DNA of 64,000 bases from an uncultured Planctomycetota bacterium (GTDB lineage Bacteria > Planctomycetota > Planctomycetia > Isosphaerales > Isosphaeraceae), in assembly GCA_963823665.1 (NCBI GenBank), contig CAWGMQ010000010.1, positions 2,208,001-2,272,000 of the forward strand. The letters run 5' to 3'. The position numbers and the translations under genes were made by a program. Below, in pieces: positions 15,377 to 52,022 of the stretch. How positions within the stretch are numbered: the first letter of the stretch is position 1; each line of letters begins with the position of its first letter. Under the pieces are notes generated by a model that saw only the letters and a list, made by a program, of their open reading frames with translations, had not been told where the DNA came from and did no database searches.

Positions 15377-18300
15377 CTATTGGTCCGCGAAAGGGTCGTC
15401 GAGGTAGACGTAGAGCCCCGACCCATCTGGCTTTCTCGTCGCGGAGGGAGGAACCTCTGGGAAGAGCTCCATCGCTGCGTTGGCGGTGTATGTAAGGCCA
15501 CGATCGAATGCGGCCTTTGCGATATCGTATGTAACGCCGGCCGCTGCTTCGCCGAACTTCCCGCCGAAATGGTTCCCAGCGACGGCCAGGGTGCCGCCAA
15601 GACCGAGACCCACAACAGCTGCTCCGGGGAATCCGCCGCCAAGCGGCTCGAAGAATTCGCCTGCCGCAAACCCAGCGGGAACTCCGATTGCCAGGCCAAC
15701 CGTCCCACCGATTTCAGCTCCAACTGTTCCGAACACCTCCGACCCCAGCGTTTGGAACGCGGCCCTGACTGAATCATCTGGATTTTTTTCGAGAGAATCT
15801 TCAAACGTCAGTACACGACCCAGCCAACCGAGCGCTGGCGCCTCCGCGGTGCCAATCGCTTTATGGAGGAACTGCACCGAACTGTCGATCGCCCCCACGA
15901 CATCATCCGAAGTGACCGAAGAATTCGAGTCCCGCAGGCCGCTCGGGTCGATTCTAACAGTCGGCGAGTTTCCGGCGTACCGGTACAGATTGACGTCGCC
16001 AGCGGAGAGCCCTGATGGATCCTGACTGATAAACCGACCCACAGCAGGATCGTAGTACCGCGCCCTGTAGTAATCGAGCCCGGTCCCCGGGTCAGTCTCG
16101 CGGCCTGTGTACGTGAACCTCGGTTGGAGGCTCGGGTTGGTCTGGCTGATGATCTGCCCGAAGCTGCTGTAGACCAAGTGATCCTGGACCACGCCGTTGG
16201 AATCGACGACGTCTTTGATCGTGCCCTGGTAGTCGCCGAGGTCCCAGAAGATCTGCCCCATCGCGTTCTCGTCGGCAAGGACCTCGTCGACGGCTGGCCC
16301 GTAGAGGTAGCGATCGGTCTGGTTGCCGGAGCCGTCGAAAACCAGGTCGATCTGGCCTCGGTCGTAGACGAACCGCTCGACCACGGGCGGGGCCGGGCCC
16401 GATCCGTCCGAGTCGTACGACGTGCCGATGCGGTTGTCGAAGACGTCGTAGGTGTACTGCGACTCCTGGATCACTGTGCCGCTAGCGTCCTTGACGATCA
16501 CGGCAGTCAGCCGGTTGCGGTTGTCGTACTGGTAATCCGTGACCGTGCCCGTCGCGATGTCGGTTTGGCTGATCCGGTTCCCGTCCGCGTCGTAGGTGTA
16601 GTTGTAGGTGCCGTCGGAGAGCAACTCGTTGTCCGGGCCGGTCACGTAGCCGGAATTGGTCCGATTGCCGTTGGCGTCGTAGGAATAGCTCTCGTTGGGC
16701 TGGGAGGAATTCACGGCGCCCGTGAGCTGGCCGGTCGCATCATAGCTGTAGGTTGTCGTGCCGTCGTCGGAGACTTCCTGGGTGATCTGACCGGCGGGGT
16801 CCAGGGTCAATTGGTACTGTGCCAAGACGGTCCCCGCATGGTCATGGGTCAGAGAATCGAGGCGTCCGGCCTGGTCGTAGCCATAGGTCGAGCTGACGAC
16901 GGGGTCGGTGCCGTTCAGGTTGGCGTAGCGCTCGATGGTTGCAGTTTGCCCGTCCGCGTTGTACGTAAAATCAACCCGCTTGGCGGCAACACCTGCGCCG
17001 CTCTGCTGGATCGAAAGCATATCGTTCAGGCCGTCGTACTGGTAGGACGTCACGGCGCCTGGCTGCCCATTGATCGTCTCGCTGACCGAGGCGACGTTCC
17101 CGGCCGGGTCATAAGCGTAGGTCAGGATAACCCGCGGGACGCCAGGTGTTCCCCCGTTGTCGATCGAGATGGTGTTGCCGTCGGCGTCGTAGGTGTAGGT
17201 GTAAGCAGAGTAGTTGTCAGCAACGCTGGTCAGCTCACCGTCCGCGTCATAGTGATAATTAATCGTGTTGACCAGGTTCCCGCTTGCGTCGTACCACTTC
17301 TCCTGGGTCTCCCGATCGAGTGCGTCGTAGAAGAAATTGGTTACACGGCCATCGCCATCGGTCTGGGAGATCAAATTGCCTGCCGCATCGTACGAATAGG
17401 ACTCGGTCGCGTTCAACGCGTTGGTCTCGGTCAGCAACTCGTTGTCGGCGTCGTAGGTGTACGTCGTGGCATTGCCCGCCGGATCGACGACCTTCGTCAC
17501 GTTGCCATCGGCGTCATAGGCGGTCGTCGTGGTGTCGCCTAGCGGGTCGGTGACGGATATCTGGCGGTTATCGGCGTCGTAGGTGTAGGTCGTGGTGTGA
17601 CCGTCGGGGTCGGTCGTGCTGGTTACGTTGCCGTCGGCATCGTAGGTCGTCGTCGTGGTGTCACCTAGCGCGTCAGTCACCTGCGTTTGCCGGTTGTCGG
17701 CGTCGTAGGCGTATGTTGTGGTGATGCCAAGCGGGTCGGTGGTGCTCGCCACGTTTCCGGCGGTGTCATAGACCGTCGTCGTGATTCCACCCAGGGGATC
17801 GATCGTCTCGACCGGGCGATCGAGGGCGTCGTACGTGTAGGTCGTGGTATGCCCATCGGGATCCGTCGTGCTGGTCACGTTGCCGTCGGCATCGTAGGTC
17901 GTGGTCGTGACGTTACCGAGGGGATCGATCGTCTTGACCAGGCGATTGAGAGCGTCGTACACGTTGGTTGCCGTGCGGCCGAGGGGGTCCGTCGTGCTCG
18001 TCACGTTGCCGTCGGCATCGTAAACGGTGGTGGTGACCCCGCCCGTCGCGTCGGTGACCTTGATCAGCCGGTTATCGGCATCGTAGGCGTAGCTCGTGGT
18101 GTGGCCGAGGGCATCCGTCATGGTCAGCACATTGCCGGCCGCATCGTACGTGTAGCGCGTAACTTCACCGAGGGGGTCGGTCTCGGTCAATTCCCGCCCA
18201 TACTGATCGTAGGTGTAGGTCGTGGTGTTCCCGAGCTTATCGGTCTCGGATGCAATCTCGCCCAGGTTCGTGTAGGTGTAAGTCCACGTGGCGCCGGTGG

Positions 18301-21064
18301 GGTCGGTCATGGAAACCAGTTCACCCCACGGATTGTACTGATATCGAGTCGTGTTCCCGAGCGCATCCGTTTCGCTGATGGGCTCGTTGAAAACCAGCGC
18401 GGGGTTCGGATTGCTGGTATCGTAGGTGACACTCGCAGTGGTGCCCGTGAGGTCGTCTTCAATGGAAATGACGTTCCCGTCGTCGTCGTAGGTGTAGGAC
18501 GTCTGCTCGGAGGGCGTGGTATCCCCGCTGACGTCGTCCAGCGCATCCCGGTTGCTGGTGCTGACCTGCCCCAGCGCATTGGTCACGGTGACAATCTGGC
18601 CCCGCTCGTTCAGGGTGACGGCGGTGACGTTGCCGTTGGGATCGGTATAGCTTGCCGAGGTGAAGCCCGACGCAGCAGCCAGAACGGTTGTTTCCGGGTT
18701 GGCAGTCAGCGACGGCGGATATAGCCCCTGGGATTGCAGGTAATTGATCGTGTACGACGTGCCATCAGCCTGCACAACCTTCTGAATACGGCCGGCAAAG
18801 TCGCTGATGAGCGTTTGCTTATCACCGAGTGGGTCAACGATCGCCGACATGTGAACTCCGTCGGCGTACTGGTAGCTCGTCTTTGCTTCATCCGGGTCCG
18901 TGATCTGAACCAGATTCCCGCTCGCGTCATATTGCAGGAGTGTCTGACGGCCCGCCGGATCGGTGATGGCGGTGACGCGATTCCCGGTATAAGTGAAGGT
19001 CGTCGTCAGACCAACTGGGTCGACGATACTATCGATCTGGCCGGCACCGTTGTAATTGTAATGCGTCGTGTTGCCGACGGGGTCGGTGACCGTACTCAGC
19101 ACATAACGCGGCTGGCCGCTGTTGACATCGCCGGCTGGCAGGGCCATGGGAATGAAGGTGTAAACCGTCCCGTCGGTGAGCGTGCGGGAAAAGGTATTCG
19201 TGCCAGGATCATAGGCGAATCGGGAATTGTCGCCCGTCAGCCCGATGTAGGAAATCACCCCCGAGGAATTGGTTTGCTGCGTGACAACCGGCTGGAAGAG
19301 CTCGTCCGATCCGTCTCCATCCACCAGGAGAACCGTTCCATCGGGATTGACGTAGAGTTGCTCCAGTCCCGCGATTCCCCAGCCCTGGCCAAAGGGGCTG
19401 TCGGTGTTGTTGACCACGAGCAGCGTGCCCGTGGTCGTGCCGAGCGGTGTATCCGCCGGGTCGTTCGGGTCCATGAGCGCGGCATTGATGGTGAAGTCGT
19501 ACTCACCAGTGGGCTCGTTCTGGAGGTTGATCTGCATGCTGGCAGAAACCGCTGTGGCGCCGCTCGGAATTTGCCAGAAGTTGAGATTCTCCAGGTCAGG
19601 GTCCGGAGTCGTCGGCTGGTACCCCGGAACGGTGTATTCGAAGTCGCCGCGGCTGATGGAGATTTCGGCAGCGAGGTACGGCTCCGTGGTGGTGACGTCG
19701 GAGTAGCCGAAGGTCAGGATCGGTCGCGGGTCGGCAGTCAGGGAATTGTAGGTCAGTGTAATTCCTTGCTCGACGCCCAGCGAGGAATAGGTCGCAAGGG
19801 TCTGCGTCTCGGTGATCGCACCGGTATCGAGCGAGACGCCCTGGTACGTCGCCTCCGTGGTGTCTTCTAGTGTCACGCCGTCGCCGGTTCCCTGGTCGAC
19901 ACGATTTCGAACCGTTGGAGGCGGCCCCTGGCCGGCTTGTATGGCGATCCCCCACGGACTTCCGCCGAGGCCGATCGGGGATTGAGCCTGATCGTAAACC
20001 GTCAGGACGGGGAAGGGGCCGGTATTAGTGGGGTCAACCGCAATGGCTGCGAAGGTGTCGATCGCGGTGTTATATCCGACCTGTCCATTCACAAGGTCGT
20101 CGATGGCGTAGCGATCGAGCAAAGAGGGATCAGTGCTTCTGATTGCCGCCTCGATTGCATTGATGTTGTAGACGAAGAGAGCACCCTTTGTGGAATTCAC
20201 CACAGGGACGTTGGGGAAGCTGGCGTAGAGGTAATCGCCGTCGGGCGAGATGGCCAGGTCGGGCGGGTTGCCGTTGGGGATGGTGCGGGTCGCGGCAACC
20301 ATCGTCGGAGTGGGGCCGAGGGGATTCTCGATGATGCCGATCGTGCTCCCGCCCGGGTCGTCAGCGGGGTCCTCGGCGTTGTGACTGGGAATGTTCGGGT
20401 CCGGGAAGCTCCATCCCGCGACGAAGGCAAACTTTCCGTCAGGCGTGATGACGACCGACCGGACATTGCTCACGTCGAAGGGGCTGCCGGGAAGTCCCAG
20501 ATTGACGCTGACGAAGCTGGCGCTGGCTTGCAAGCTCGTCGCATTATGAATGACGCCAAAGCCATTATTGTCGTCAAGATAGTCGGTGAAGATCATGACG
20601 TTGGGATCGGACGTCGCGGCCACACCGAAGGGATACTGGTCGGCCGCGATCGAGTCTGTCTGCTGCCAGTAAGTCTTCGATGTATCGCTGCTGGTGTCGA
20701 TGACCTCGATATGTCCCACCGTGTTCGACTGAAGCCGCGTGTAGTAGGAAACATCGTTCGGCGAGGCGACGAAGAGCCGGCTGCCGTCGCTGTTGAGGGC
20801 TAGGCCCAGCAGGCCCTGGCCGTCATCGGAGACCCGGATTGTCTGAATCAGTTGGTCGAACTTTGATGAATTGGGATCGATGTTGACCACGTAGACAAGA
20901 CCGTAATTCGCGCCGTTCGACGTGTAGTTGTTCTGGTCGGAAATATACGCATACTCGTCGTCCGGATCGATGACGATCTGGAACGGCGACGCCCCACTCG
21001 GAAGCTGGATGTCCCCGGTGCTGCTACCGACATTGATCTGGTGAAGAGCGACGGTGTCGATCAC
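15377..21064 (-). CDS. Segment 5 of giant gene: YVTN-like beta-propeller, RHS/YD shell, RHS core and C-terminal tip
   Basis: Dozens of YD repeats (TTTTYDADGNVTSTTDP); core FTYTGRETDPGTGLDYYRARYYDPAVGRFISQDP..NLYRYAGNSPTVRIDPSGL. Confidence 0.9.
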   Translation of the reverse strand: MIDTVALHQINVGSSTGDIQLPSGASPFQIVIDPDDEYAYISDQNNYTSNGANYGLVYVVNIDPNSSKFDQLIQTIRVSDDGQGLLGLALNSDGSRLFVASPNDVSYYTRLQSNTVGHIEVIDTSSDTSKTYWQQTDSIAADQYPFGVAATSDPNVMIFTDYLDDNNGFGVIHNATSLQASASFVSVNLGLPGSPFDVSNVRSVVITPDGKFAFVAGWSFPDPNIPSHNAEDPADDPGGSTIGIIENPLGPTPTMVAATRTIPNGNPPDLAISPDGDYLYASFPNVPVVNSTKGALFVYNINAIEAAIRSTDPSLLDRYAIDDLVNGQVGYNTAIDTFAAIAVDPTNTGPFPVLTVYDQAQSPIGLGGSPWGIAIQAGQGPPPTVRNRVDQGTGDGVTLEDTTEATYQGVSLDTGAITETQTLATYSSLGVEQGITLTYNSLTADPRPILTFGYSDVTTTEPYLAAEISISRGDFEYTVPGYQPTTPDPDLENLNFWQIPSGATAVSASMQINLQNEPTGEYDFTINAALMDPNDPADTPLGTTTGTLLVVNNTDSPFGQGWGIAGLEQLYVNPDGTVLLVDGDGSDELFQPVVTQQTNSSGVISYIGLTGDNSRFAYDPGTNTFSRTLTDGTVYTFIPMALPAGDVNSGQPRYVLSTVTDPVGNTTHYNYNGAGQIDSIVDPVGLTTTFTYTGNRVTAITDPAGRQTLLQYDASGNLVQITDPDEAKTSYQYADGVHMSAIVDPLGDKQTLISDFAGRIQKVVQADGTSYTINYLQSQGLYPPSLTANPETTVLAAASGFTSASYTDPNGNVTAVTLNERGQIVTVTNALGQVSTSNRDALDDVSGDTTPSEQTSYTYDDDGNVISIEDDLTGTTASVTYDTSNPNPALVFNEPISETDALGNTTRYQYNPWGELVSMTDPTGATWTYTYTNLGEIASETDKLGNTTTYTYDQYGRELTETDPLGEVTRYTYDAAGNVLTMTDALGHTTSYAYDADNRLIKVTDATGGVTTTVYDADGNVTSTTDPLGRTATNVYDALNRLVKTIDPLGNVTTTTYDADGNVTSTTDPDGHTTTYTYDALDRPVETIDPLGGITTTVYDTAGNVASTTDPLGITTTYAYDADNRQTQVTDALGDTTTTTYDADGNVTSTTDPDGHTTTYTYDADNRQISVTDPLGDTTTTAYDADGNVTKVVDPAGNATTYTYDADNELLTETNALNATESYSYDAAGNLISQTDGDGRVTNFFYDALDRETQEKWYDASGNLVNTINYHYDADGELTSVADNYSAYTYTYDADGNTISIDNGGTPGVPRVILTYAYDPAGNVASVSETINGQPGAVTSYQYDGLNDMLSIQQSGAGVAAKRVDFTYNADGQTATIERYANLNGTDPVVSSTYGYDQAGRLDSLTHDHAGTVLAQYQLTLDPAGQITQEVSDDGTTTYSYDATGQLTGAVNSSQPNESYSYDANGNRTNSGYVTGPDNELLSDGTYNYTYDADGNRISQTDIATGTVTDYQYDNRNRLTAVIVKDASGTVIQESQYTYDVFDNRIGTSYDSDGSGPAPPVVERFVYDRGQIDLVFDGSGNQTDRYLYGPAVDEVLADENAMGQIFWDLGDYQGTIKDVVDSNGVVQDHLVYSSFGQIISQTNPSLQPRFTYTGRETDPGTGLDYYRARYYDPAVGRFISQDPSGLSAGDVNLYRYAGNSPTVRIDPSGLRDSNSSVTSDDVVGAIDSSVQFLHKAIGTAEAPALGWLGRVLTFEDSLEKNPDDSVRAAFQTLGSEVFGTVGAEIGGTVGLAIGVPAGFAAGEFFEPLGGGFPGAAVVGLGLGGTLAVAGNHFGGKFGEAAAGVTYDIAKAAFDRGLTYTANAAMELFPEVPPSATRKPDGSGLYVYLDDPFADQ

Positions 21065-24000
21065 CGCGATGGAATCACTTCCAGCAAGGATGACGTAAGC
21101 CCTGGTGTCGTCGTGGGTGAGCGCGAGGTAGGTCGGCCGCGATCCGCGCCGACGTTGATGGTCGTGACCAGGTTGCCGTAGTCTGGGTTCGGAATCTGCT
21201 GGCCGGGATTCTGGGAGTCGGGCACAGTGGCCTGGCCGTCGAGGATGGCGACGGAGCCAGCGGCATTCTGTGCGGTGAGGACGTAGGCGTCTCGCGTTTC
21301 AAAGGGTATCGGATCGCTCTCCAGCGTGATCGGCTGTCCGGTCCCGTTGGGGATTTGGCGGATGACCGTGATCTGGGCCGATCCCAGCGGTACGCCTGCT
21401 GGTACATTGACCGTGATCGTGTTGTCCGTCACAGAGGTAGGCTGGGCGACAGAGTCCTGGCCGCCCTCTGCCTGGCCCGGTAAGTCTCGTCCGCCAACCT
21501 GAAACAGAACGGAAATCTGATTGAGCGTATTGCCGAATCCCTGACCATCGAGGACAAGTTGATAACCTCCGCCGGGAGCGCTCGCGAGGCCGGCGTCGGA
21601 AATCTGGGGTGGACCGTTGGTGATCGTGGACGTTGGCACCGATGCGGTGTATTGCGTCACGCCGGTTTGAGCGACATCGATCTTGACCTGGGTTGCCAGC
21701 GCACTCTGACCATCCTGGGGAACTTCGACGATGTTCACGGAATCCGAACCGGTGGGGAGCTGAATGACGAAGTGGGAGAGCAAATCGACGTAGGCGCCGA
21801 CGTTTGCCCATGCGCCCTGGGTGTCGAGCACCATGAATGAGCTGCCACCCAGCGCAAATCCGGCATCGGCCTCGAGATATCCGGACACCAGGCCGCTTTC
21901 GAGTGTGTTCACGATGGCGGCAATGTAGGTCCCTCCCTCGCGGATCCCATCGTAGGGAGGCGAGGCACTCCTTGCGAAACCGTCGGAACCGACGACTCCA
22001 TCCTCCACCTCCATCCAGGCCGGCACCATGCTGCCGGAGCCATCCGGGATCTGGTCGGCGCGATAGAAAAGGACCGGAGTCCCAGCGGCAATCCCCGGGG
22101 CGACCGGCACCGCAATCTGAACGGGGTCGGCTAGCTGCTCGTTACCCAGATCGAGCTGGAATGCCCCCGCGAAATCAAGGGCCGCCGGCAGAGACATCGG
22201 AAGATCAGCCTGAGCGACCGGCTGGATGTCCACAGTCGCGCCTTGCCCCATCGCGCCTGGCGGCACCGCGACGGTTGACCCGTCCGAACCTTGCACGATC
22301 GCTCCCGCCGGCCCGACCTGGATCGATCCGCTCTGCGGTAGTTCGACCTCGACCGGTATGACCTGCTCCGCGGGCCCGTTGATCACGGTGATCTGAGCGA
22401 TTCCCACGTTGCCCGCGTTGACGAGTCCGTCCGGGGTGACCGTGACGACATTCGGATTGCTCACAAAGTACTCGGTCCCGGTCGAGGCTGAGGTCAGGTC
22501 GATCTCGCCTCCCACGTCGATCTTGAGCTGGCGCGAACCGACATGGGCAGCCAAGCTCAAGGCCTGCGGGTAATCGTCCAGACCCAGCTTGACCAGGAGC
22601 TGCTGCGTCTGGTCAGTCGAGGTACCAACACTGACCGCCGTCGCGGCCTGGATGCCGTGGCTTGATACAAGCAGGACGGTCGTGCCGTCGGCCACGGCAT
22701 GGAGCTGGCCGCCGGCGCTGATCGTCGCGACGGACAAGTCGAGGGTCTGGAAGGTCAGGTAAGAGCTCGGCAACACAGCTCCGTTCTCGTCGGCGAAATC
22801 GCCGACGACCGTCACGTTCAAACTGTCACCGGGCTGGAGGCTGGGGGCGCGATCCTCGAAATCGAGGCTGACGAGCGGCGCAGCACTGACGTTGATTGAT
22901 ACTGTCGCCGTCGCCGAGGTCCCGTATCCGTCATCGGCCACGTACTGGAAGCTGGCCGGGCCGGTGTAGCCGGGGGCTGGGACAAAGGTGACGGTGTGAC
23001 CGTCGGGCGAGAGTGTGGCGGTCCCGTCCTCGGGATTTAGCACGCGGAAGTAGATCGGGTTGCCTTCGGGATCGGTCGCCAGGGTCGCCAGATCAACCGT
23101 GACCGCCAGGTCGATGTGTGTCGTTGCCTGGCCGGCCGTCGAGACCGGAGGCAGGTTTTCCTGGAAGCCGAGATCACTGGAGAGGAGCTGCATGTCCGTT
23201 GCGTTGATCACGCCGTCCTGGTTGGCGTCGGCAGCGGCCAGATAGCCGGGCTGGCCCACGGACGTGCCCAGGGCGCCAGCGAGGAGCTGGCCGTCGGTGC
23301 CATCGACCTTGCCGTCGCCGTTCACATCACCGGCGACGAACATGTGCAGTGTGTAGCTGCCCTTCGTTGCACCATTGGCCCCGGATACATCGAGCAGCTC
23401 GAGACCGGCCTCGCCGATGGCGTACAGGGCAAAGGAGCCGAGTGCGCTGGTGTGGCTCACGAGCGGAGTCAGGCCGACGATCAACGGCACGCCCGGCTGA
23501 AGCGCGCTGCCCGACGTCGCCTGGACGGTGATCCCCAGATAGATTTCCCCGGAGGCCGTCGAGAGGAGCTCCGAGGGACGGAAACTGAACGCGTAGCGAT
23601 CGGTCCCACCGGCGGCCAGTGTCCCGGTTTGGTTCGAGGCGAGGAACTCGCCCGAGCTGCCCAGGTCGGCGGTAAGCGGCAAGACCTGGAAGCTCGGCGC
23701 GTACTGGACCACGGCGCTTGTCCCGTTCGCGGGCGACACCGCCTCGATCAACAGGTGGATCGGTCCAGCCTGATAGCCGTACCGGCTCGACTGGCCTGAG
23801 ACCAGATTGCGAGCCGAGACGAGATTGCCTGAGCTGTCGTATGTGTAGATCACGCGCGTGCCGTCCGGCGCGATGATCGACGTGATCCGCCCCTGGGCAT
23901 CGTGCACGAACTGGATCGACTCGCCCGTCGATGCGGTGATCCCGCTATCGGAGAAGTAGAGCCGCGTGCCGTCGGGCCGGATCATTTCCTGCACTCCTTG

Positions 24001-48000: not shown

Positions 48001-50998
48001 GTAAGTGATCTGGGTGCCGAACGTGCCGTTGCCGTTGCCCGGCAGGATGCTCACCGTATTGCTGCCGTAGTTGGCGGTCGCCACGTCCAGCTTGCCGTCG
48101 CCGTTGAAGTCGGCGATGACCAGGTTGCCGGGGTTCGAGCCCACGGGATAGTTGACGGCGCTGGCGAAGGTGCCATTGCCCTGGTTCAAGAGCACGCTCA
48201 CGTTGGCGCTGTTCCAGTTGGCCACCGCCAGGTCGTTGCCGTTCTTGCCGTCCAGGTCGGCAATGGCAACGCCCCGCGGGCTGGAGCCAACCGCGTAAGT
48301 GACCGGGGTCTGGAAGGTGCCGTCGCCGTTGCCGAAGAGCACACTGACGCTATTCGAGCCGTAGTTGGCCACGGCGATATCGGCCTTGCCGTCACCGTTC
48401 AAGTCGCCGATGGCAACGGCGATCGGGTTACTGCCGACCGCGTAAGTCACCGGGGCCTGGAAGGTGCCGTTGCCGTTGCCCAAAAGCACCGAGATCGTGC
48501 CGCTGTTGTAGTTGGCCGTGACCAGGTCAAGCGGCTGGCCGGCACCGCGCAGGGCCGCCGAGGCGGTGAAGTAGGGCTGGTTGCCCGAAACCGAGTACGA
48601 ATTCGGCGAGTAGGTCCCGTCCGGCTGGCTGGTGGGTGTCACCAGCGGCGTCGCCGTCCCGGGGCTGTTGTCGTTTTCTTTCTCGGTTACAAACCCTGGC
48701 ACCTGCGCGATCCCGAACTGGAGTTGAAACGGCGTCAACGCGTTCTGGGCCCTGTCGGTGATTCCCGAGCCCACGTTGAGGGTATAGCTTCCGGGCAGCA
48801 GAGGGCCGGTAGTGATCGTCAAGGTTTCGGACAGACCGCCGTTATAGCTGCCGGGGACCAGCGCGTAGCTGTTGCCGTTACTGTCTGTGAGCGAAAAGTT
48901 TGCCGAACTTGTGACGGTGGCGGGGACCAGGTTCTTGGAAAAACTCACTGTGATCTGGTTCAAAAGCGCGTTGGTCGTCTCGCCCGGGGCCGGCAGCCCG
49001 GTCGAAGTGACGGTCGGCGGAACACCATCGATCACGCTGGCATCGAGCAGGTACTGGGCGCGGATGCCCTGATTGCCTGCCGAAGTCTGCACGATCACGT
49101 AGTAGGCGCCGTTGCCGCCGCTGGGGACGGTGTAGCTCAGATTTCCCGTGTTGCTCGTGAACGCGGGTGCGCTGCTACCGGCCAGCTCGACGCTCAGCTC
49201 GACGGCGGCCGGCGAGGCCGAGCCCGTAGACAACGAGCTGATCGCAGGCGCGCTCGTGGTCAGCGATATGGTATTGCCGGCCACGAGAGTCTCCAGCCCG
49301 TAGTAATCCCCATTATCACCGACCGGCAGGGCGCCCGCGACGACTCCGCCGAAGCTGCCCTGGACCGGAGAGGTCACGTTCAGCAATGTACTGTTCGACT
49401 GACTGCCACCCGGCGTGGCATCGAGCTGCGGCCCCACGCTCGCTTCAGATTGATCGACCCGCAACTGGTACGAGGCGGTGTTGTTGTTGCTGAAGACATC
49501 GACGAAATAGGTGCCGGACGTCGGAATCGTGACGTTATCCAGCTCTGCATTGCCGACGGAGCTGTTTCCACCCGTGCTGGCAATCACGGTGCCGGATACG
49601 TTCTCGAGGTACAAATAGGGGTCTACGCCATTATTGGGGTTCCTGGCTTCGAGGCGGATCGTGACGTGATCGCCGGCGTTGGCATTCAGATACCAGTAGT
49701 TTGGGTCGTTGGTGCTGGCGAAGGTGCCGACGCCAAGTGCCGTAAAGAATCCGGTGCTGACCTCGGTCATGGGCAAGGGAGTGGCGCCGGGGACGAACCC
49801 TATCTGGTGGGTGGTCAATGCGATCTGTCCGTCTGGTGGGTTGCTAATCGTGAACGCCAGCGCGAAGGGGGTCACCTCGTTGCCGTTTGAGTCGATGAGC
49901 CCGGAGAGGCTGTTGAACGAGTACGTGCCGGGCTGGAGCGGCTCCGGGGTCATGGTGAAATTCACGGTCGTCGAGCCGGCAGTGTACGACGAAGCGAGCA
50001 CGTAAGTGGGATCGCCGCTGCTGCCCGTGAGGCTATAGTTGCTTGCCGCTCCGGCGGACGCCGCATTGAGCGGCTGGTTGAACGCCACCGCGAAATGGTC
50101 GATGGCGGTTTCGGTGTTGGCCGTGCCGGTCGAGACGACGCCGTCGAGGGGGGCGTTGCTGGTCACCCAGGCCGGCGGCGCCGGCGGCGGTTCCCCCTCC
50201 AAGACTCGCGTTGTGATTCCCGCCCGACGAATCGGCGGCCGTCAGGCCGGTCCCATCGTCGAGCTGGTAGTCGGCCACCAATCCGGTCTGGGGCGTTGCG
50301 GGCGGTTCTACCATGTCCGCCTGAATTTCAGCGTTCGAGCGGGCGACGTTCCAGATGCTTACGTCGTCAATCGAGCCGCTTAGCCAGGCGCCATTCCCCA
50401 GGTTTGTGCCGTCGGTAGAGCCAAGGGCGTAGTACTGCCCGTAACTGTTGTTGAATGGAGCCGAGCGATTGCCTGAGACCGTCGTCGAGCTGGGGACCCC
50501 GTTGAGGATGCCGTCCAGGGTCGACGTGGTGCTGTTGTAGCGCAGGGCCACGAAGTTCCAGTCGCCAAAGCTGGCCGTTCCTAGCGACACTGCGTTGAGG
50601 CCCTCGACCCGCGCCTCGACCTGGCCGGAGCTCAAGATCTCGATCTGGCTATCGTGCCAGGCCGTGTTGAGCGAGGTCTGACCCAGCTCATCCAGGATGA
50701 CACCCGGAGCATTGGCCTTGAACCATAGCTCCACCGTCACCGATGTCGTGGGAAACGAGCTTGCGAGGTTCGGCGTGATGAGGTAATCGCTCGTCCCGTT
50801 GAACGACAGAGCCGAGCCTGCGGTGCTTACCACGGTCGGCAGCGACGTGCTTATCACGGCTGTGTTGGCCAGCACGATGCGATTCTCGAGAGCTTCGAGA
50901 AAAACGCGATTCAGGTGGCCGCCCCGTTTCGTCGAGCGCGTCCGGCGTTTCTGGCTGGACCTTTTTTGCAGCCATTTCCAGATGCTAGCGGTGGCCAT
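15377..50998 (-). CDS. Giant (about 11,870 aa) RHS/YD-repeat surface protein with LamG, PPC, FG-GAP, CARDB, Ig and dockerin domains; interrupted by four single-base indels
   Basis: ORFs 50033..51064, 34618..50202, 24750..34640, 21061..24828 and 15377..21064 overlap and join mid-domain: GTAAGA/PAWVTS (about 50178, one extra base), PDLQV/SSVTAP (about 34648, one extra), TYTP/QAPGRIAITATATD (about 24900, one missing), INVGA/GSRPTYLALTHD (about 21144, one missing). ATG 50998 to stop 15377 is 35,622 nt with net zero correction. Confidence 0.85.
17400..18260 (-). repeat. Highly regular YD repeat tract (21-aa units, 42-aa/126-bp super-period)
   Basis: GTCACGTTGCCGTCGGCATCGTA-like blocks recur at about 126-bp spacing (for example near 17500, 17625, 17875, 18000). 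Confidence 0.8.
21061..24828 (-). CDS. Segment 4 of giant gene: short RHS-like module, dockerin, Ig-like domains
   Basis: TDLSV..LVRTYDS..FGYGWRL; HDAQGRITSIIAPDG..YTYDSSGNLVS; GDVNGDGKVDGTD...ADANQDGVINATD; FVPAPGYTGPASFQY. Confidence 0.85.
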   Translation of the reverse strand: MLKVLDPSDQTAPVVAFSPQLANARLTAAAAIVGTISDTNLDTWVLDRAPIGSSTFTTLASGTAPVSSATLATFDPTVLANGPYVLRLTATDIAGRVSQTTIVVEADSTTKPAQYLRTETDLSVVLAGSVFNLVRTYDSLTADQSGTFGYGWRLAVEDTDIQTTVLPTGQESTGIYNPFLIGTRVYLTLPTGQRVGFTFTPVKEQINGLTYYMPAYTADSGVTYTLSSAGGPLIQAGNRYYDLKTGLAYNPAADLYAGPEYVLTAPDGTAYDLSTAQGVQEMIRPDGTRLYFSDSGITASTGESIQFVHDAQGRITSIIAPDGTRVIYTYDSSGNLVSARNLVSGQSSRYGYQAGPIHLLIEAVSPANGTSAVVQYAPSFQVLPLTADLGSSGEFLASNQTGTLAAGGTDRYAFSFRPSELLSTASGEIYLGITVQATSGSALQPGVPLIVGLTPLVSHTSALGSFALYAIGEAGLELLDVSGANGATKGSYTLHMFVAGDVNGDGKVDGTDGQLLAGALGTSVGQPGYLAAADANQDGVINATDMQLLSSDLGFQENLPPVSTAGQATTHIDLAVTVDLATLATDPEGNPIYFRVLNPEDGTATLSPDGHTVTFVPAPGYTGPASFQYVADDGYGTSATATVSINVSAAPLVSLDFEDRAPSLQPGDSLNVTVVGDFADENGAVLPSSYLTFQTLDLSVATISAGGQLHAVADGTTVLLVSSHGIQAATAVSVGTSTDQTQQLLVKLGLDDYPQALSLAAHVGSRQLKIDVGGEIDLTSASTGTEYFVSNPNVVTVTPDGLVNAGNVGIAQITVINGPAEQVIPVEVELPQSGSIQVGPAGAIVQGSDGSTVAVPPGAMGQGATVDIQPVAQADLPMSLPAALDFAGAFQLDLGNEQLADPVQIAVPVAPGIAAGTPVLFYRADQIPDGSGSMVPAWMEVEDGVVGSDGFARSASPPYDGIREGGTYIAAIVNTLESGLVSGYLEADAGFALGGSSFMVLDTQGAWANVGAYVDLLSHFVIQLPTGSDSVNIVEVPQDGQSALATQVKIDVAQTGVTQYTASVPTSTITNGPPQISDAGLASAPGGGYQLVLDGQGFGNTLNQISVLFQVGGRDLPGQAEGGQDSVAQPTSVTDNTITVNVPAGVPLGSAQITVIRQIPNGTGQPITLESDPIPFETRDAYVLTAQNAAGSVAILDGQATVPDSQNPGQQIPNPDYGNLVTTINVGADRGRPTSRSPTTTPGLTSSLLEVIPSR
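24750..34640 (-). CDS. Segment 3 of giant gene: CARDB repeats, beta-propeller, putative-Ig (cadherin-like) array
   Basis: Repeated PDL.V..V...V.WTV.N.G....W.D.VYLS (CARDB) and ATDPD.D.LTYS...LP.GA..D..TG...WTP (putative Ig). Confidence 0.85.
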   Translation of the reverse strand: MTAPSQANAGGTVSLDFTVINQGTVPTTTPHWTDTVYLSLDGTLDSNAIVLGSFPNQSALLPGQSYETMTGDLLIPDTFAGAGYLIVYTDSGNAVNETPNEGNNTFVSPIYVNALPPADLVTGQVTAPDQAFDGTSFTVSYTVTNKGLNVTDVPSWTDTIWLAHDPTRPGASKGDVVLATLSHNGVLGNDPSVLIPPTSYTETATVTLPSGISGQYYITAWADTFDQVLKTTLDANINPDDPNELYNDNWKARPITVLLTPPPPAPLPPDLVVSSVAAQPTAVGGDSFTVNWTVLNQGTGPTEGATLFDRVYLSNQPTLNAPGANQWTLGTIEHDGIVPVGGSYNAQATFQLSPEIAGKYVIVDANTGGSIGDNSIPPTWEGPNTNNNTNTGPTLVTPLAPADLQVTSIVTQSPNYSGENTTVQWTVTNFGNTVWSGTQYWVDDVYISPYPTFNTNGNTLAGVVAYNNVQTLGTGQSYTQSLTFALPKGIGGTAADPQTFYVYVITDPSGTTNTGYRDNDTSRDYYTTNGYEDPTNNQGSQTLTVIYREPDLEVTNLVVPSTPVYSGDVIPVSWTVTNVGNRDTRVGYWIDRVYLSDSPSLDDQSYMLGQVTHSSILMTGAQYNASLNVQLPDGIHGNFYILVFTDSNETGSPTVPGLYNDGSDPFFGRVDEYQGEGNNITAASLPVLLANSPDLQVSSVTAVGPDPSQPDHVQTGQNYTVTYTVTNAGAGGTPARQSSWVDWIFLSRDQLLDSGDTFLAEEDHTGGLNAGQSYQVTATFQATRNLSGPWYIIVITDPRGVVYEGGNKYDNTTATATPLVFDVPPPADLTVQTITIPSSAQSGDPVQIQWTVQNVGANAASGSWTDSVYLASGATWDISDPLIGQVVYSGTVLPGGTYTSTLNANLPDAAAGQYRIIVRTDIFDEVVESNYLNNTTASADVVNVTVPELQLGVPVQTTLSTGQDRVYEVQVGLGQTLRVDLTSSDASASNELYLRYQAVPSGSEYDAAYQGALQANQFAVIPSTQAGEYLILVRGQSESAANTPVSVVANVLPFEITDVQTDEGGDGQYVTTTILGAQFDLQAIVKLVRPGIAEYEPVSYQVVDSTTITAVFDFTNAPHGLYDVVVINPDGTEAIAPYRYLVEQALPPDVAVALGGPRVLTAGQNAIYGFSLESLTNVDIPYVEFEVGIPELGGITETDPGTGLYPYLALTTNLGAEDNPQVADVPWASVNPVVNTGGEDLSTAYALDFADGSNLGETLAVQTYPDGLPPDASENPPSDTAFQFDITASATPLTTAEFIAQQTQEALTLRSAILQDPTASASLQVLASDPTSWTDLYLAALTEAGLLLPSDVPPAAQQDPDVITLIDTLAAGILAGPAGQQIITTGNLPQFFDQVIKWYGSNPTQTSPYIGSRYVDSPDPDAAGTIVAGNAPPNSAFDLQESSPTQTESFTVYVNYANDYDMNGDIDSSNPENPNYVPVQPTDFSPFLNGQGTTGQAQLVGPFGSGTPDFVPTGQPLPYTINFSNPSSTSTVGQIRIVSQLDPNLDPRSFRLGDLQIGDLQVHIPNTVGSFQGDFDFTQSEGFILRVSAGIDIQSDTITWLLQAIDPATGEVVTDPSRGLLPPGSNASGFVTYTAEPLAGVATGTQISAQASILFDTSAPEDTNTVTNTVDAVAPTTTLTATPIVPGSSDYQVQWTATDDNGGSGVQGVTVYVAEDGGDYQIWLDQTTTTSGIYDGQPGHTYQFLALATDNAGNQEQPPSGVAVPSDGSQANLGALPTVPATTTDLGTPAQPTTQPSTNPLFTQAEQGIPSPVQVSQPSEFQKVLQPFTARAFATGITQSEANIGPLAIVTFPDGSALVSGGPARDQLFSFTSEGGQAGTPLATEPFPIYDMALDAAGNLWATTGGGPLLELNPQTGAIIGQYGDSLTQSLAIQPSTGLIYVSSGKGIEIFNPTTQTFAHFSDLRVGSLAFDPDSSLWAATWPQNQNDVVEFVPDSPAPNPITPQYHAQLMFQFTTDVDSIAFGLPGTMLAGLLFISHDEEASPGAGTDLTMVDLATLQTLAVATGGSRGDEIKTTALGSILLSQSQQVDILSPIEAPRVAGSNPPDGATVGLPLGTITVTFDHDMFQGASTDPHSVLNPSNYQIIGDTAGPIAVSAVVYDASSRTATLSFDSIEAGGYTLQVATSIQSTDGLGLAEPFSAHFRGLDDVSSQVNISFANGRANAATKTYSYSVIVTNNGPTPLLTPLDLTFDGLQPINDQVIGATNLTANGTVWLDLSSDVPGGKLLPGQATTAATVTFSNPSGLRLSFKTGLLAMPAPNADPIFDSQPLTTATAGQLYNFPVAAHDPNKYTLGYLLVRGPAGMTVNATSGLVSWLPTIASPALAPVVLAVYDSLGSRATLSYTITVGGVDQPPVLQPLPLQIAGQEDQTLQVALSATDPQGLPLISWADNLPPGAVYDTTNDTLTWIPAPGQAGTYPDVQFFVSDGVNQVSAATTLLIAPTQQPPTLVQPANRTVLEGESVHIPLQASDPQGDPLSFSSTMLPGGAYFDPSTGVFDWTPAYFQQGVFQIPFTVSDGQLSVTQTTTITVLPVDAPPQFDDLSSWRVAEGQDINFRAFAFDPNNPGYVPPDRMADGTLTALEGTDPTVTYTVSGLPAGATFDPQTDLFDWPTNYSDAGSYLVTFTATKPGNGTGAPLSISVSVPITVLNTNRAPQITFIANQTVDDKAVLTLPIQAIDPDGDPMVLTAGGTTDQGLPAFASFVDNGNGTGTFTFAPGPDDGGDYTISLTATDNGDGGGPAAVLSASQAFIVTVNDTPPHLAPIGDKVAVVGQELQFTIHATDPNSYPLTFSALGLPAGATLAPSSTYGDAVVTWTPTSSALGETTVVFQVADNGNGNPAEVLTGQQSINLVVRLSNRAPVLLPVGNQTVAQQQTLTVALQATDPDNDTLTYSAANLPAGAALDPVSGILTWTPNLSQSGTFNNIVLSASDGNLTASQTLTIDVTAINQAPVLVPLVEQDGREGTPLQFTLAAADGDGDPLTYGVISGLPSGAQFNTMTGQFKWTPTYSQAGDYAIQFGVSDPGGLSDQISVNVHIDQVDLPPSLVVTNHQAVVGQPLGFTLLGSHPDQGIPIDLTYSALGLPEGSSLNPQTGAFSWTPGPSQIGDYSVQFSVSDGELSDTVPVVLRGTIAAVPPQVIVVLTPSFPAVPGQSVIVHVAASSLAPITGLSVTVGGQPLTLDSQGRATYTPRRPAGLRSPPRQPTAMGSSASMRRCSRCLTRATRPRPSSPSAPSWPTRG
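34618..50202 (-). CDS. Segment 2 of giant gene: Ig/PPC scaffold, three FG-GAP+LamG repeats, CARDB array
   Basis: GDLNGDGKADIAVAN-type FG-GAP repeats; DVDFFSWTGKAGD..TGTYLIEV PPC domains; WHLVTAV..LDEVAYF LamG; ADLIVAPGS CARDB units. Confidence 0.88.
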   Translation of the reverse strand: MEGEPPPAPPAWVTSNAPLDGVVSTGTANTETAIDHFAVAFNQPLNAASAGAASNYSLTGSSGDPTYVLASSYTAGSTTVNFTMTPEPLQPGTYSFNSLSGLIDSNGNEVTPFALAFTISNPPDGQIALTTHQIGFVPGATPLPMTEVSTGFFTALGVGTFASTNDPNYWYLNANAGDHVTIRLEARNPNNGVDPYLYLENVSGTVIASTGGNSSVGNAELDNVTIPTSGTYFVDVFSNNNTASYQLRVDQSEASVGPQLDATPGGSQSNSTLLNVTSPVQGSFGGVVAGALPVGDNGDYYGLETLVAGNTISLTTSAPAISSLSTGSASPAAVELSVELAGSSAPAFTSNTGNLSYTVPSGGNGAYYVIVQTSAGNQGIRAQYLLDASVIDGVPPTVTSTGLPAPGETTNALLNQITVSFSKNLVPATVTSSANFSLTDSNGNSYALVPGSYNGGLSETLTITTGPLLPGSYTLNVGSGITDRAQNALTPFQLQFGIAQVPGFVTEKENDNSPGTATPLVTPTSQPDGTYSPNSYSVSGNQPYFTASAALRGAGQPLDLVTANYNSGTISVLLGNGNGTFQAPVTYAVGSNPIAVAIGDLNGDGKADIAVANYGSNSVSVLFGNGDGTFQTPVTYAVGSSPRGVAIADLDGKNGNDLAVANWNSANVSVLLNQGNGTFASAVNYPVGSNPGNLVIADFNGDGKLDVATANYGSNTVSILPGNGNGTFGTQITYATGSSTNPIDVVAVQLTSDGKVDLATANNGNSTVSVLLNQGTPGAAFTASTFATAVNYAAGGSSPYHLVAADLNDDGNQDLAVAGYGNNVVGMLLGNGNGTLQPAISISVGGGNPIGITAGVFNGNGVTELATANYNGNSVTVLVPNMVKALPVDATTGLESGYGRGNMSSSSDVDFFSWTGKAGDVVQVASETPGNAGNTYLNYYVENSFGSILTSFTSSNSSNNNGQGQSGPITLPYTGTYLIEVTPNSGYTGEYRFRVTEAPPTLQLVSHYNDSVSSSPNVPVLTNTSPGNLTATVAGYISQNDGSGDFFSLGNVLAGTQLNLTLSQPATSLLGGVLNIYNAAGTNETNNVTAGNTLSYTVPAGQGGTYYARVSSASTTTVSFWMNWNGTNSEMPISFSNNYNLFLNSGSFGFDTNESYVYGISSAGLANSWHLVTAVFVDGVVTNDQLWIDGVQQTLTQRVGTTVGAPLVATSTAIGNYVGGSYAFTGVLDEVAYFDGTLTAAQIQAQYAARNSGSYSSVILSQNPVAYYRLGESNGTVAYDSSGNFDNAGFGGSITLGVSGALGNDSNTAYQFSGGSISAVVPESTGLLGQYVLSIDVANTTSPQITGDTLPGQGSTSSAVIDRFTLNFSEDLNAATVNNMADYLLQDSQGNVYHMTSPGYSSGTSAGYLISDGPLQPGSYTLTISGLTDRTSNLLVPYTLSFNVTGVAPYTLESRNNNSPGTATPLVTPTSQPDGTYSPNSYSVSGNQPYFTASAALRGAGQPLDLVTANYNSGTISVLLGNGNGTFQAPVTYAVGSNPIAVAIGDLNGDGKADIAVANYGSNSVSVLFGNGDGTFQTPVTYAVGSSPRGVAIADLDGKNGNDLAVANWNSANVSVLLNQGNGTFASAVNYPVGSNPGNLVIADFNGDGKLDVATANYGSNTVSILPGNGNGTFGTQITYATGSSTNPIDVVAVQLTSDGKVDLATANNGNSTVSVLLNQGTPGAAFTASTFATAVNYAAGGSSPYHLVAADLNDDGNQDLAVAGYGNNVVGMLLGNGDGTLQPAISISVGGGNPIGITAGVFNGNGVTELATANYNGNSVTVLVPNMVKALPVDATTGLESGYGRGNMSSSSDVDFFSWTGKAGDVVQVASETPGNAGNTYLNYYVENSFGSILTSFTSSNSSNNNGQGQSGPITLPYTGTYLIEVTPNSGYTGEYRFRVTEAPPTLQLVSHYNDSVSSSPNVPVLTNTSPGNLTATVAGYISQNDGSGDFFSLGNVLAGTQLNLTLSQPATSLLGGVLNIYNAAGTNETNNVTAGNTLSYTVPAGQGGTYYARVSSASTTTVSFWMNWNGTNSEMPISFSNNYNLFLNSGSFGFDTNESYVYGISSAGLANSWHLVTAVFVDGVVTNDQLWIDGVQQTLTQRVGTTVGAPLVATSTAIGNYVGGSYAFTGVLDEVAYFDGTLTAAQIQAQYAARNSGSYSSVILSQNPVAYYRLGESNGTVAYDSSGNFDNAGFGGSITLGVSGALGNDSNTAYQFSGGSISAVVPESTGLLGQYVLSIDVANTTSPQITGDTLPGQGSTSSAVIDRFTLNFSEDLNAATVNNMADYLLQDSQGNVYHMTSPGYSSGTSAGYLISDGPLQPGSYTLTISGLTDRTSNLLVPYTLSFNVTGVAPYTLESRNNNSPGTATPLVTPTSQPDGTYSPNSYSVSGNQPYFTASAALRGAGQPLDLVTANYNSGTISVLLGNGNGTFQAPVTYAVGSNPIAVAIGDLNGDGKADIAVANYGSNSVSVLFGNGDGTFQTPVTYAVGSSPRGVAIADLDGKNGNDLAVANWNSANVSVLLNQGNGTFASAVNYPVGSNPGNLVIADFNGDGKLDVATANYGSNTVSILPGNGNGTFGTQITYATGSSTNPIDVVAVQLTSDGKVDLATANNGNSTVSVLLNQGTPGAAFTASTFATAVNYAAGGSSPYHLVAADLNDDGNQDLAVAGYGNNVVGMLLGNGDGTLQPAISISVGGGNPIGITAGVFNGNGVTELATANYNGNSVTVLVPNMVKALPVDATTGLESGYGRGNMSSSSDVDFFSWTGKAGDVVQVASETPGNAGNTYLNYYVENSFGSILTSFTSSNSSNNNGQGQSGPITLPYTGTYLIEVTPNSGYTGEYRFRVTEAPPTLQLVSHYNDSVSSSPNVPVLTNTSPGNLTATVAGYISQNDGSGDFFSLGNVLAGTQLNLTLSQPATSLLGGVLNIYNAAGTNETNNVTAGNTLSYTVPAGQGGTYYARVSSASTTTVSFWMNWNGTNSEMPISFSNNYNLFLNSGSFGFDTNESYVYGISSAGLANSWHLVTAVFVDGVVTNDQLWIDGVQQTLTQRVGTTVGAPLVATSTVIGNYVGAGYAFTGVLDEVAYFDGTLTAAQIQAQYAARNSGSYSSVILSQNPVAYYRLGESNGTVAYDSSGNFDNAGFGGSITLGVSGALGNDSNTAYQFSGGSISAVVPESTGLLGQYVLSIDVANTNGPTITAPSLPAQGNMSTSIINQVTLGFSEDLNAATVNNLANYVLQDSNGNVYHLSNPGYTSGTSAYYSITDGPLQPGSYTLTISGLTDRMGNAQNPFSLQFSVAGVTPFTNQGRSSDNSANPTALTLTGDPAGTGLFVAGGRGALINNSDVDYWTFSGTSGNSLVISTQNPNSPSGSQLNYVVTEPNGSTTLTSFNTNYNGNAESAPVNLPGTGTYTISVHISNGYYGEYRFWVSSATPPLQLDKEPNTTIATADTLSLAASGNSEVANVGGTIMNSSDLNYFNLGTVQAGYSILLSTQLTSLSVLSPVVSVYNASDVYQNKTNGRPFDSVGQIDITQTGTYYALMQGGSGNGGLLDQYVMNVQIVPTSSLTALPNLEVTSISLPSGSNIESGQPVTFSWTVTNDGQAATNVDNWSDRAVLSLDTTYGNSDDIPLGGNNGVFGHSGVLAVGQSYTATETVMLPDGISGNYYIIVQTDTNEQVDESTIGRGDSVTVSSGGPNGNGTFTVNLAPYADLIVQGLTVNGPSAAGSFSLSWDTVNQGDGAVANNWAEQLVVKDVTTGVTVVNTPLSFSGGLAANGGTSAHTEPFTGSYTVDSAGDFDVSVTTNSDQSIYEDNLQGHASAVANDTSATTFTATRDLTVTNLTQSSPASPQSGNPVTLTWTDADTGVLATTGGWSDQVTVVNTTTGAALYSANVPYTGASIQPGSASATLSTSFTLPDGAPGVGTIEATVTVNANHAEAEYNTAGTAGGNNSSSINFASTLADYADLIVAPGSLGTAPTDPRSSGAVTVTWNDQNQGDAAVSAAFNDSVLVQKVNSENSLTTIATGTVSGNASLAAGATSAQQQFNFTLPEGPAGVGNFLITVTTDSGQTVKEYDSNGNPAYGNNSASITTTSTLGNSADLIVAPGSVTATPTNPYSSGAVTVTWNDENQGLAAVNAAFNDSVLLQKVNSGNSLTTVASGTVSGDATLAAGAISAQQQLTLALPDGVAGVGNFLITVTTDSGKTVAEYDSNGNPAYGNNSASITTTSTLGRYADLVVSPGSVAATPTNPYSSGAVTVTWNDENQGDAAVSAAFNDSVLVQKVNSGNSLSTIATGTVSGNATLAAGATSDQQQLTIALPDGAAGVGNFLITVTTDSGQTVKEFDSNGNPAYGNNSSSITITSTLGNYADLVVASGSLAVTPATPQSSGAVTVTWNDTNQGDAAVSAAFNDYVLVQRVNPDNSLTNITSGNVSGNASLAVGATSAQQEFSFTLPDGPAGTGNFQITVTTDSGQTVKEYDGSGNPAYGNNSASITTKSTLAAYPDLQVTMLSATPSAGLQSGGDVTLSWDDANTGNGATKGSWYDSITVTNSTTGEVLGTSTLLYDPSAAGNGPIAAGDSRARQFMVTLPNGAPGVGQIQFSVTTNVYNQVFEYNTAGPNDTSTAQSNNTSSLTVSSTLAPYPDLTVPSLIVSPSTGLESGDNLSIQWSDSNTGNAPVNGAFIDHVVIQNTTTGKPLGTQDVPYDPTASGNGPIAAGQAISRQIGFTLPQGTPGAGQIQVTVTTDYYNQVFEWNEAGPGGTSTAESNNSTSQTVTASLAPYADLAASAVSAPSLTIGDPAQVTVGWTVTNQGNGPGTVATWTDAVIASPDDDPTDGTTIAQFTHQGLLAVGASYSQTQTFLLPPHFEGQYHLFVETNSTGAVFENGNTANNYAEAPNLFDVSPIPYADLVVPSVTVSPTGASGQPVQISWTVANQGIGVTNTSSWSDEVSLATDPAGTNIVVDLGGFEHIGVLAPGGSYTHTVEVTLPVTLQGTYYVVVHTGGPYEFIYTTNNTNVSGPLTVTLTPAPDLTPTQIVAPTTAGAGDQVDVSWTVQNLGPGDANTPWTDSLQLRQVGGGAVYNLGQFSYTLPLQAGKSYSRDELVGLPSNVQGVFQFAVTTATGLFENGATANDTYVDPNQLTLTLPPNPDLQVLIGDSPLAG
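36595..38202 (-). repeat. Four tandem 402-bp (134-aa) CARDB repeats
   Basis: The AGGTCGG anchor lies at 38195, 37793, 37391, 36989 and 36587 (exact 402-bp spacing). Copies are similar but clearly diverged. Confidence 0.9.
40508..48671 (-). repeat. About 2.9 near-identical tandem copies of a 2838-bp (946-aa) unit
   Basis: Identical shadow ORFs recur at 2838-bp offsets (41405/44243/47081; 42522/45360/48198). Identity boundaries read by eye at 40508 and 48671. Confidence 0.97.
50033..50998 (-). CDS. Segment 1 of giant gene: planctomycete export motif + LamG domain
   Basis: Basic N-terminus MATASIWKWLQKRSSQKRRTRSTKRGG, then RVFLEALENRIVLA (RxxxExLExRxxLA type), then SALSFNGTSDY..TVELWFK..IDDVSIWNVARS. 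Confidence 0.85.
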   Translation of the reverse strand: MATASIWKWLQKRSSQKRRTRSTKRGGHLNRVFLEALENRIVLANTAVISTSLPTVVSTAGSALSFNGTSDYLITPNLASSFPTTSVTVELWFKANAPGVILDELGQTSLNTAWHDSQIEILSSGQVEARVEGLNAVSLGTASFGDWNFVALRYNSTTSTLDGILNGVPSSTTVSGNRSAPFNNSYGQYYALGSTDGTNLGNGAWLSGSIDDVSIWNVARSNAEIQADMVEPPATPQTGLVADYQLDDGTGLTAADSSGGNHNASLGGGTAAGAAGLGDQQRPPRRRRLDRHGQHRNRHRPFRGGVQPAAQCGVRRSGKQL

Positions 50999-52005: not shown

Positions 52006-52022
52006 ATCGGGAGGTCGATTCG

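Follow-up and report, generated by a model that had tools for sequence, protein, structure and literature searches.

Organization of the locus

We analyzed a window of 64,000 nucleotides from an uncultured member of the Isosphaeraceae (Planctomycetota); the assembly containing it (G000) comprises 16.46 Mb in 12 contigs and is 92% complete. A giant gene runs along the minus strand of the window, and 567 nt downstream of it lies a gene for a PEP-CTERM-type protein of 242 aa (Table 1), itself followed by small unassigned ORFs (12771-13899). Five minus-strand ORFs tile the giant locus in the ORF listing (50033-51064, 34618-50202, 24750-34640, 21061-24828 and 15377-21064), with neighboring ORFs overlapping at all four frame changes. 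Three-frame translation places these changes, hereafter breaks 1 to 4, near 50,180-50,200, 34,650, 24,900 and 21,140, each of them within a domain. Counted from the ATG at 50,998, which has AAGGGA a short distance 5' of it, the segments add up to 273+5176+3249+1253+1920, that is, about 11,870 codons; all five are free of in-frame stops, with a GC3 of 0.70-0.90.

On the plus strand, an ECF sigma factor and Ser/Thr kinase-TPR pair (51391-55045) is divergent from the giant gene, its kinase being split into three overlapping ORFs, and a PIN-like toxin-antitoxin-type pair was recognized by eye at 56055-56995. Kinase-like or ECF/kinase-like genes were also seen by eye beside the giants of G000:C6 and G095:C1; this adjacency could reflect regulation, or chance in a kinase-rich genome. 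Further giant ORFs of the source genome encode 5,389 aa with several LamG domains (G000:C4 239435-250151) and a 7,189-aa frame (G000:C3 near 1867363).

Table 1. Features of the giant gene and its downstream neighbor (window coordinates)
Feature	Position	Strand	Basis or remark
Giant gene	15377..50998	-	~11,870 codons; four frame changes near 50,190, 34,650, 24,900 and 21,140
Basic leader ending in NRVFLEALENRIVLA, LExR-type export-like motif	50867..50998	-	7 of 10 fixed consensus positions (PMC8567305)
LamG (spans break 1), then Big_5 and PPC	48680..50800	-	Pfam/NCBIfam, homolog read-through
Three tandem 2,838-nt (946-aa) units: FG-GAP repeats, PPC, LamG, Big_5	40175..48671	-	98% DNA identity
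CARDB array across break 2, with 17 repeat starts counted by motif	31830..39380	-	Pfam/NCBIfam
PPC-like and DUF7619-like region, first propeller-like region, Big_5, He_PIG/Big_9 array	25050..31830	-	Order conserved in homologs
Truncated RHS module, first ~280 residues (N-terminal cap), no core	23677..24513	-	Pfam DUF6531 (weak) and RHS repeat
PPC/collagen-binding-like, dockerin (23176-23334), Big_9, Big_2	22370..23670	-	Pfam/NCBIfam, structure match
ZU5-like domain without CxH motif	21901..22365	-	Profile of 39 homologs versus ankyrin ZU5 region, E 2e-6
Second beta-propeller (YVTN/lactonase-like), which crosses break 4 and closes the conserved trunk	19940..21320	-	Pfam/NCBIfam
Exchangeable tip, complete RHS cassette: shell start with FN3-like insert, YD repeats, core	15938..19850	-	Pfam, model, core motif
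C-terminal cargo, 186 aa, after PTVRIDPSGL	15380..15937	-	16% Gly, nine GxxxG motifs, two stretches of mild hydrophobicity, GC3 0.61
PEP-CTERM-type protein with a beta-rich domain between a signal-like N-terminus and a VPEP tail	14081..14809	-	Conserved neighbor

One gene or several

A preliminary description, made from the sequence alone, had joined the five ORFs into one reading frame through four single-base corrections, and the ORF layout, the position of the breaks inside domains and the read-through in homologs all agree with it. Break 1 is read through by homologous ORFs of G011:C3 (E 6e-39) and G004:C5, while breaks 2, 3 and 4 are read through by seven, nine and three ORFs, respectively (14 homologous regions examined). 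The ortholog in G033:C5 (87-92% DNA identity) differs from the window by a single one-base gap at break 3 (92%) and again at break 4 (88%); it is uninformative on breaks 1 and 2, since its N-terminal two thirds are absent from the 60 kb fetched. Full-length homologs, which the same description had proposed to look for, do exist: unbroken ORFs of 11,156 aa (G062:C270), 10,255 aa (G095:C1) and 9,428 aa (G139:C1) share the trunk order. Had the homologs been split consistently at the same points, the single-gene claim would have failed; their breakpoints instead lie elsewhere or do not exist.

The assembly itself is indel-prone, as its rpoC (G000:C3:1635894-1640276, L103) carries two compensating frameshifts, and three other stretches of the window probably hold frameshifted genes (1104-2415, 10575-11940 and 58008-60714). 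Across 80 GTDB loci, a hand count found an uninterrupted frame throughout the 10 kb that lie upstream of the match in 20 of 20 named-strain records, versus 2 of 13 in one series of metagenome-assembled genomes (MAGs). A codon-model frameshift scan recovered the four breaks, at 1.5-1.8 per 10 kb here versus 1.6 in the control G095; we did not use this rate as evidence because other genes of the control genome gave a similar one. Relaxed selection, the second observation that would have counted against an intact gene, is not seen: relative to the G033:C5 ortholog, four trunk blocks give dN/dS values of 0.21, 0.19, 0.27 and 0.18, and a fifth, which is saturated, gives 0.34.

Taken together, the read-through in homologs, the one-base gaps relative to the ortholog, the unbroken relatives, the frameshifted rpoC and a dN/dS of about 0.2 make it very likely that the four breaks are assembly errors in a single intact gene. 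That the indels are real and the gene recently died in the source strain is improbable. Four low-depth short-read contig sets cover positions 15,300-35,290 patchily, with no listed piece bridging the three breaks there and no indel listed at them, and thus do not disprove the indels; in addition, four of the five paralogous loci fetched from the same genome are likewise split, and the loss of the N-terminal two thirds in the G033 ortholog (within the fetched 60 kb) fits such decay. However, the same defect affects the essential rpoC and unrelated genes of the window, the segments have kept their stop-free frames and high GC3, and selection appears purifying, although a very recent loss would leave dN/dS unchanged. 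A true operon of five genes, or programmed frameshifting that yields several chains, has the ORF layout of the source assembly in its favor, but it is hardly credible given breaks that fall within domains, homologs that are broken elsewhere or unbroken, and the known full-length single ORFs.

Leader and export

The N-terminal leader contains FLEALENRIVLA in translation. A hand count gives 3 mismatches over the 10 fixed positions of the planctomycete consensus in PMC8567305, which, in the available part of that paper, tolerates up to four near the N-terminus. In Tuwongella, according to the same source, an RRLxxExLExRxLLA leader is carried by eight of the ten longest proteins, which reach 10,566 aa, and the accessible text of PMC10952558 names PF07595 as a signal peptide. 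The LExRxxLA motif that had been noticed at the start of the gene is present, but the curated Pfam model Planc_extracel (PF07595) does not match the leader at E<=1. Leader-like motifs also occur in the giants of G095, G062 and G001.

As had been stated, delivery domains of the PAAR, VgrG, WXG/LXG and TPS families are lacking from all nine segments searched with Pfam and NCBIfam, and a scan by eye of the neighboring ORFs revealed no obvious secretion system; one relative (P0018) has RTX repeats close to its C-terminus. A planctomycete-specific export route, as had been suggested, is possible only for members with an LExR-type leader: since the trunk is found across several phyla, export of the family as a whole is not planctomycete-specific. 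Titles of the trunk records include Planctomycetota, Cyanobacteria, Alpha-, Beta- and Deltaproteobacteria, Nitrospirota, Verrucomicrobiota and Lentisphaerae, and the closest titled record (89% identity over the 690-aa query) is an Isosphaeraceae MAG (L121). One family member (L156) lies on a cyanobacterial plasmid record, which suggests horizontal spread.

Architecture of the stalk and trunk

The nine segments matched LamG, Big_5, PPC, FG-GAP, CARDB, He_PIG/Big_9, dockerin, Big_2, propeller-like, RHS-repeat and TIGR03696 models, which include the LamG, FG-GAP, CARDB, Ig-type and RHS domains named in the preliminary description. Judged by this architecture, an adhesin stalk appears a sound reading. 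The copy number of the 946-aa units could be a matter of assembly. The preliminary description was right on the RHS core and the adhesin domains, but had missed a second, truncated RHS module in the middle of the protein. Like the dockerin, the ZU5-like domain and the second propeller, this lone RHS cap belongs to the conserved trunk.

The model of the cap (pLDDT 87) superposes on residues 23-279 of 8qja (Z 14.8, rmsd 2.9, 212 aligned), a 1,021-residue type VI secretion system (T6SS) Rhs shell of which it covers the N-terminal quarter. In the window, the cap runs on into a PPC-like domain and then the dockerin. Among 130 proteins with such a module, counted after removal of P0001 as a duplicate and possibly including further duplicates, a full shell follows in 67, the dockerin trunk in 56, and another or truncated arrangement in 7. 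The cap is thus a truncated shell that purifying selection maintains (dN/dS 0.19 for its block versus the G033:C5 ortholog), which shows that one quarter of such a shell can persist under selection as a stand-alone domain.

The ZU5-like domain was recognized through the profile of its homologs, only 1 of 39 of which matches Pfam ZU5 (E 0.15). Its C-terminal consensus is ARTxSPP, the Ser being conserved in at least 90% of the 39 homologs; self-cleavage at this domain is unsupported because the CxH motif is absent. A block of Big_2, ZU5-like and IPT domains (21278-22640) has only 43% identity to the ortholog, versus 83-93% in its flanks, which suggests a second block of recombination.

The RHS cassette and its cargo

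The core of the cassette has the spacing R..13..DPSG..24..DPSG, with the Arg 13 residues ahead of the first DPSG and the two Asp 24 residues apart. The core scores 81.5 bits with TIGR03696 (cut-off 32.5), and PF05593 and TIGR01643 match the YD-repeat shell. The best structural matches of the cassette start (pLDDT 87) are T6SS Rhs shells (Z 26.0, rmsd 2.4, 404 aligned), and it also aligns with the BiTLP structure 9ifo from residue 706 of the latter (Z 22.6, rmsd 4.1, 429 aligned). A sandwich inserted in the shell start resembles FN3 domains (Z 5.4-6.9) but has no Pfam FN-plug match; it passes directly into the YD hairpins, leaving no room for an NHL propeller, and none is found there.

The cassette is mobile, and its join to the trunk is not a misassembly, since the propeller-to-RHS junction recurs in a separate protein (P0121, 63% identical) and close RHS cores (65%) stand behind He_PIG arrays in other proteins. 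The source genome has 23 RHS cores over the cut-off. The C-terminal domain is variable, and the cargo differs in each RHS member seen.

The order of core, PTVRIDPSGL and 186 further residues argues for a caged C-terminal cargo, as had been claimed. Neither Pfam nor NCBIfam gave an assignment for the cargo, and structure gave none either. A search of 1.84 billion representatives returned two matches, one a repeat protein over 37 residues, the other (36% identity) the C-terminus of an unrelated 562-aa protein, P0241, in which a weakly L,D-transpeptidase-like N-terminus (E 0.07) and a Gly/Ser linker precede the shared domain. A Gly-zipper lead (Atlas) was weak, under the recognition threshold. 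From its composition, our best guess for the cargo is a membrane-inserting glycine-zipper toxin.

Neither a convincing immunity gene nor an HExxH remnant was found between the cargo and the PEP-CTERM-type gene (14,810-15,377). This 567-nt gap holds two ORFs of 154 and 114 aa (GC3 0.50 and 0.62), which may still include a divergent or frameshifted gene; the 154-aa ORF has no Pfam match. Likewise, no convincing immunity ORF follows seven of the eight RHS genes checked (the window and six of seven others). The exception belongs to another family and reads as a 10,387-aa RHS-tipped ORF, a candidate immunity gene and an ORF of at least 6,823 aa (G054:C1 2986251-3040000, L046-L048). The lack of a convincing immunity gene speaks against a toxin, as it is unusual for an antibacterial one.

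Two further observations concern RHS cargos elsewhere. At four loci (G000:C8 341443-346701, G000:C11 354526-357903, G000:C4 2414397-2423615 and G001:C5 427353-453107), the chain runs 570-1,640 residues beyond DPxG, with a variable cargo, an HExxH domain and sometimes more; such tails are probably too long for caging, and by analogy with teneurins the chain may thread out of the shell. The RHS cargo at G086:C6 1504803-1512416 (L117-L118) has HxxxxxxD and HxH motifs, which resemble those of an M15-type peptidoglycan peptidase.

Exchange of the tip across the family

The G033:C5 ortholog matches the window up to position 19,933 and then again at the neighbor gene (14,072-14,777, 86.5%). Between these points, the place of the RHS cassette is taken by a domain that resembles pesticin/lysozyme (Pfam score below cut-off) and by an HExxH domain. 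The slot that follows the propeller is exchangeable, the whole tip having been swapped between close orthologs, and entire RHS cages can be exchanged in the manner of toxin tips.

To survey this slot, we retained the 51 of 80 GTDB loci that reach the propeller with at least 120 further in-frame residues; the other 29 were left out because the frame was broken, the contig ended or the propeller was absent. Tips were classed by clustering and Pfam, in genomes that are not independent (five are Sphingobium). A tip class with an HFIGHSRG-type motif, presumably alpha/beta-hydrolase-like, accounts for 30 of the 51, an NS endonuclease coming next in four of the 30; Pfam and PDB profiles gave no confirmation of the hydrolase assignment. 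The second class has seven members, six of them with a peptidase S8 match. RHS cassettes form the tip in three loci (L173 clusters with the window), with a cassette start only in one more, pesticin-like (lysozyme-like) domains are found in two, below cut-off, and the remaining eight are mostly without class. In 35 of the 51 loci an HExxH domain comes next, whereas the window allele has none. In L122 and L175, the tip was seen by eye to have a peptidoglycan-binding repeat and then a peptidase motif that we assume to be MepA-like; there was no Pfam match. The caged payload described earlier is therefore present but does not define the family, most relatives having an enzyme-like module in the slot.

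These results bear on what the giant protein is for. The main rival of an attacking function, because most tips are hydrolase-like and immunity genes are missing, is a real giant protein that serves foraging or biofilm adhesion: the tip enzymes would break down extracellular polymers or reshape the matrix of the cell itself, with the caged peptide serving as a signal or recognition tag and not as a toxin. Lipase-, protease- or nuclease-like tips do predominate, seven of eight RHS genes checked lack a convincing immunity ORF, and, in the part of the text available, Zhang et al. 2012 (PMC3482391) ascribe matrix degradation to large surface proteins in which ZU5 accompanies adhesion modules and lipases. 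Yet an entire tip has been swapped in an ortholog at about 90% identity, the cargo domain differs in every RHS member seen, and the lysozyme-like tips, though below cut-off, point to bacterial targets. We consider this rival unlikely, while giving it appreciable weight.

A conserved PEP-CTERM-type neighbor

The earlier account of the locus was correct on the giant gene but mentioned neither the missing immunity gene nor the conserved PEP-CTERM-type neighbor. The PEP-type domain was found in 14 of 121 family genomes. The nine other copies that are short and stand alone are all found at most about 2 kb from such a giant gene, mostly downstream and in two cases upstream; one of these contigs, G062:C15, bears the N-terminal part of the giant only. 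In P0002, G062:C270, G000:C8 and G057:C28, the domain is fused into the giant itself, and elsewhere it opens a following protein with an LExR leader. This distribution points to a shared function of the PEP-type protein and the giant. The neighbor resembles PEP-CTERM/DUF642 clusters; its VPEP tail scores 12.1 bits (cut-off 16), one paralog passes PF07589, and the genome has two exosortases over cut-off. We also considered whether the neighbor might be a cohesin that partners the trunk dockerin, but it has no cohesin signal.

A proposed function

Domain order, read-through in homologs, purifying selection, exchange of the tip and the conserved neighbor are observed. On balance, we favor, with some reserve, an adhesin-effector platform, that is, an exported adhesive filament that presents a damaging tip, here an RHS-caged membrane-active peptide. 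The basic LExR-type leader would direct export of a filament of about 1.2 MDa, whose conserved stalk would consist of adhesive heads and Ig-like spacers. Displayed at the surface, the Ig/CARDB filament would stand off the cell, and its LamG, FG-GAP and propeller heads could bind surfaces. The variable slot at the far end would carry a module that attacks or digests neighboring cells or polymers. In the window allele, the RHS shell would undergo self-cleavage at the DPSG motif and enclose the glycine-rich peptide of 20 kDa, which may insert into membranes once adhesion has reached a target.

A wider version of this proposal is possible, and we put it forward tentatively: a multi-phylum 'warhead on a stalk', with an adhesin of 9,000-12,000 residues, a fixed distal cassette, an exchangeable effector, a PEP-CTERM partner and no immunity genes. 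Effectors would range from lipases and lysozymes up to entire RHS-caged toxins, and the dedicated partner might tether or assist the giant. Such a device could do without immunity genes because it would be aimed at other phyla or at micro-eukaryotes. If true, soil and aquatic bacteria would have here a common, hitherto overlooked means of reaching and attacking neighbors without a type VI needle. The family has gone unnoticed because assemblies fragment the gene and annotation reads 'putative Ig domain protein'. Titled records include cultured carriers (Aquisphaera, Sphingobium, Bradyrhizobium and Nostoc), which makes the proposal testable.

Comparison with known systems

Size alone is not new, as planctomycete proteins of more than 10,000 aa with such a leader are already in print. 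Those of PMC8567305 (PF07595) are similar in leader and size; the portion of that paper available mentions no RHS cage, exchangeable tip or partner gene, and the leader of the window misses the Pfam model. In open-access main texts, we found no paper that joins CARDB and RHS repeats with either a dockerin or He_PIG, none on planctomycete Rhs-adhesin polymorphic toxins since 2013, and none on giant cyanobacterial proteins with CARDB and putative Ig domains. Giant proteins of PVC bacteria, for which a role as predatory weapons has been proposed (bioRxiv 2023.11.21.568195; PMC12057145), also combine adhesion, hydrolase and Rhs-like parts, and one of about 6,000 aa has Rhs and adhesin domains (PMC12057145); they differ in domain sets and phyla, and the accessible parts of these reports do not mention an exchange slot, a lone RHS cap or a PEP-CTERM neighbor.

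The ZU5 large surface proteins of Zhang et al. 2012 (PMC3482391) likewise have ZU5-like, adhesion and enzyme domains such as lipases. As far as the available text goes, their ZU5 autoprocessing domain has a C-terminal CxH motif, whereas the ZU5-like domain of the window lacks it and lies near the distal end.

BiTLP (9ifo; PMC13018210) shares N-terminal adhesion domains, an FN3-like insert in the shell start and a small hydrophobic cargo, and the R/D/D spacing of its cleaving core, as given in the accessible text, equals that of the window. The giant differs in lacking an NHL propeller between plug and shell, its own propeller preceding the cassette, and is far longer, with no immunity gene seen. 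We rejected membership among teneurin-like proteins (TLPs) as the NHL insert is missing; the six phyla with TLPs that are listed in the part of PMC13018210 available do not include Planctomycetota.

Finally, Rhs polymorphic toxins (RhsA 7q97, Tse5 8cp6 and 8qja; PMC3482391, in the part available) have the same YD shell, double-DPxG core and variable C-terminal cargo. In contrast to them, the giant protein has neither PAAR or VgrG nor a convincing immunity gene; a stalk of about 10,000 adhesin residues stands in front of its RHS cassette, which is one of several tips.
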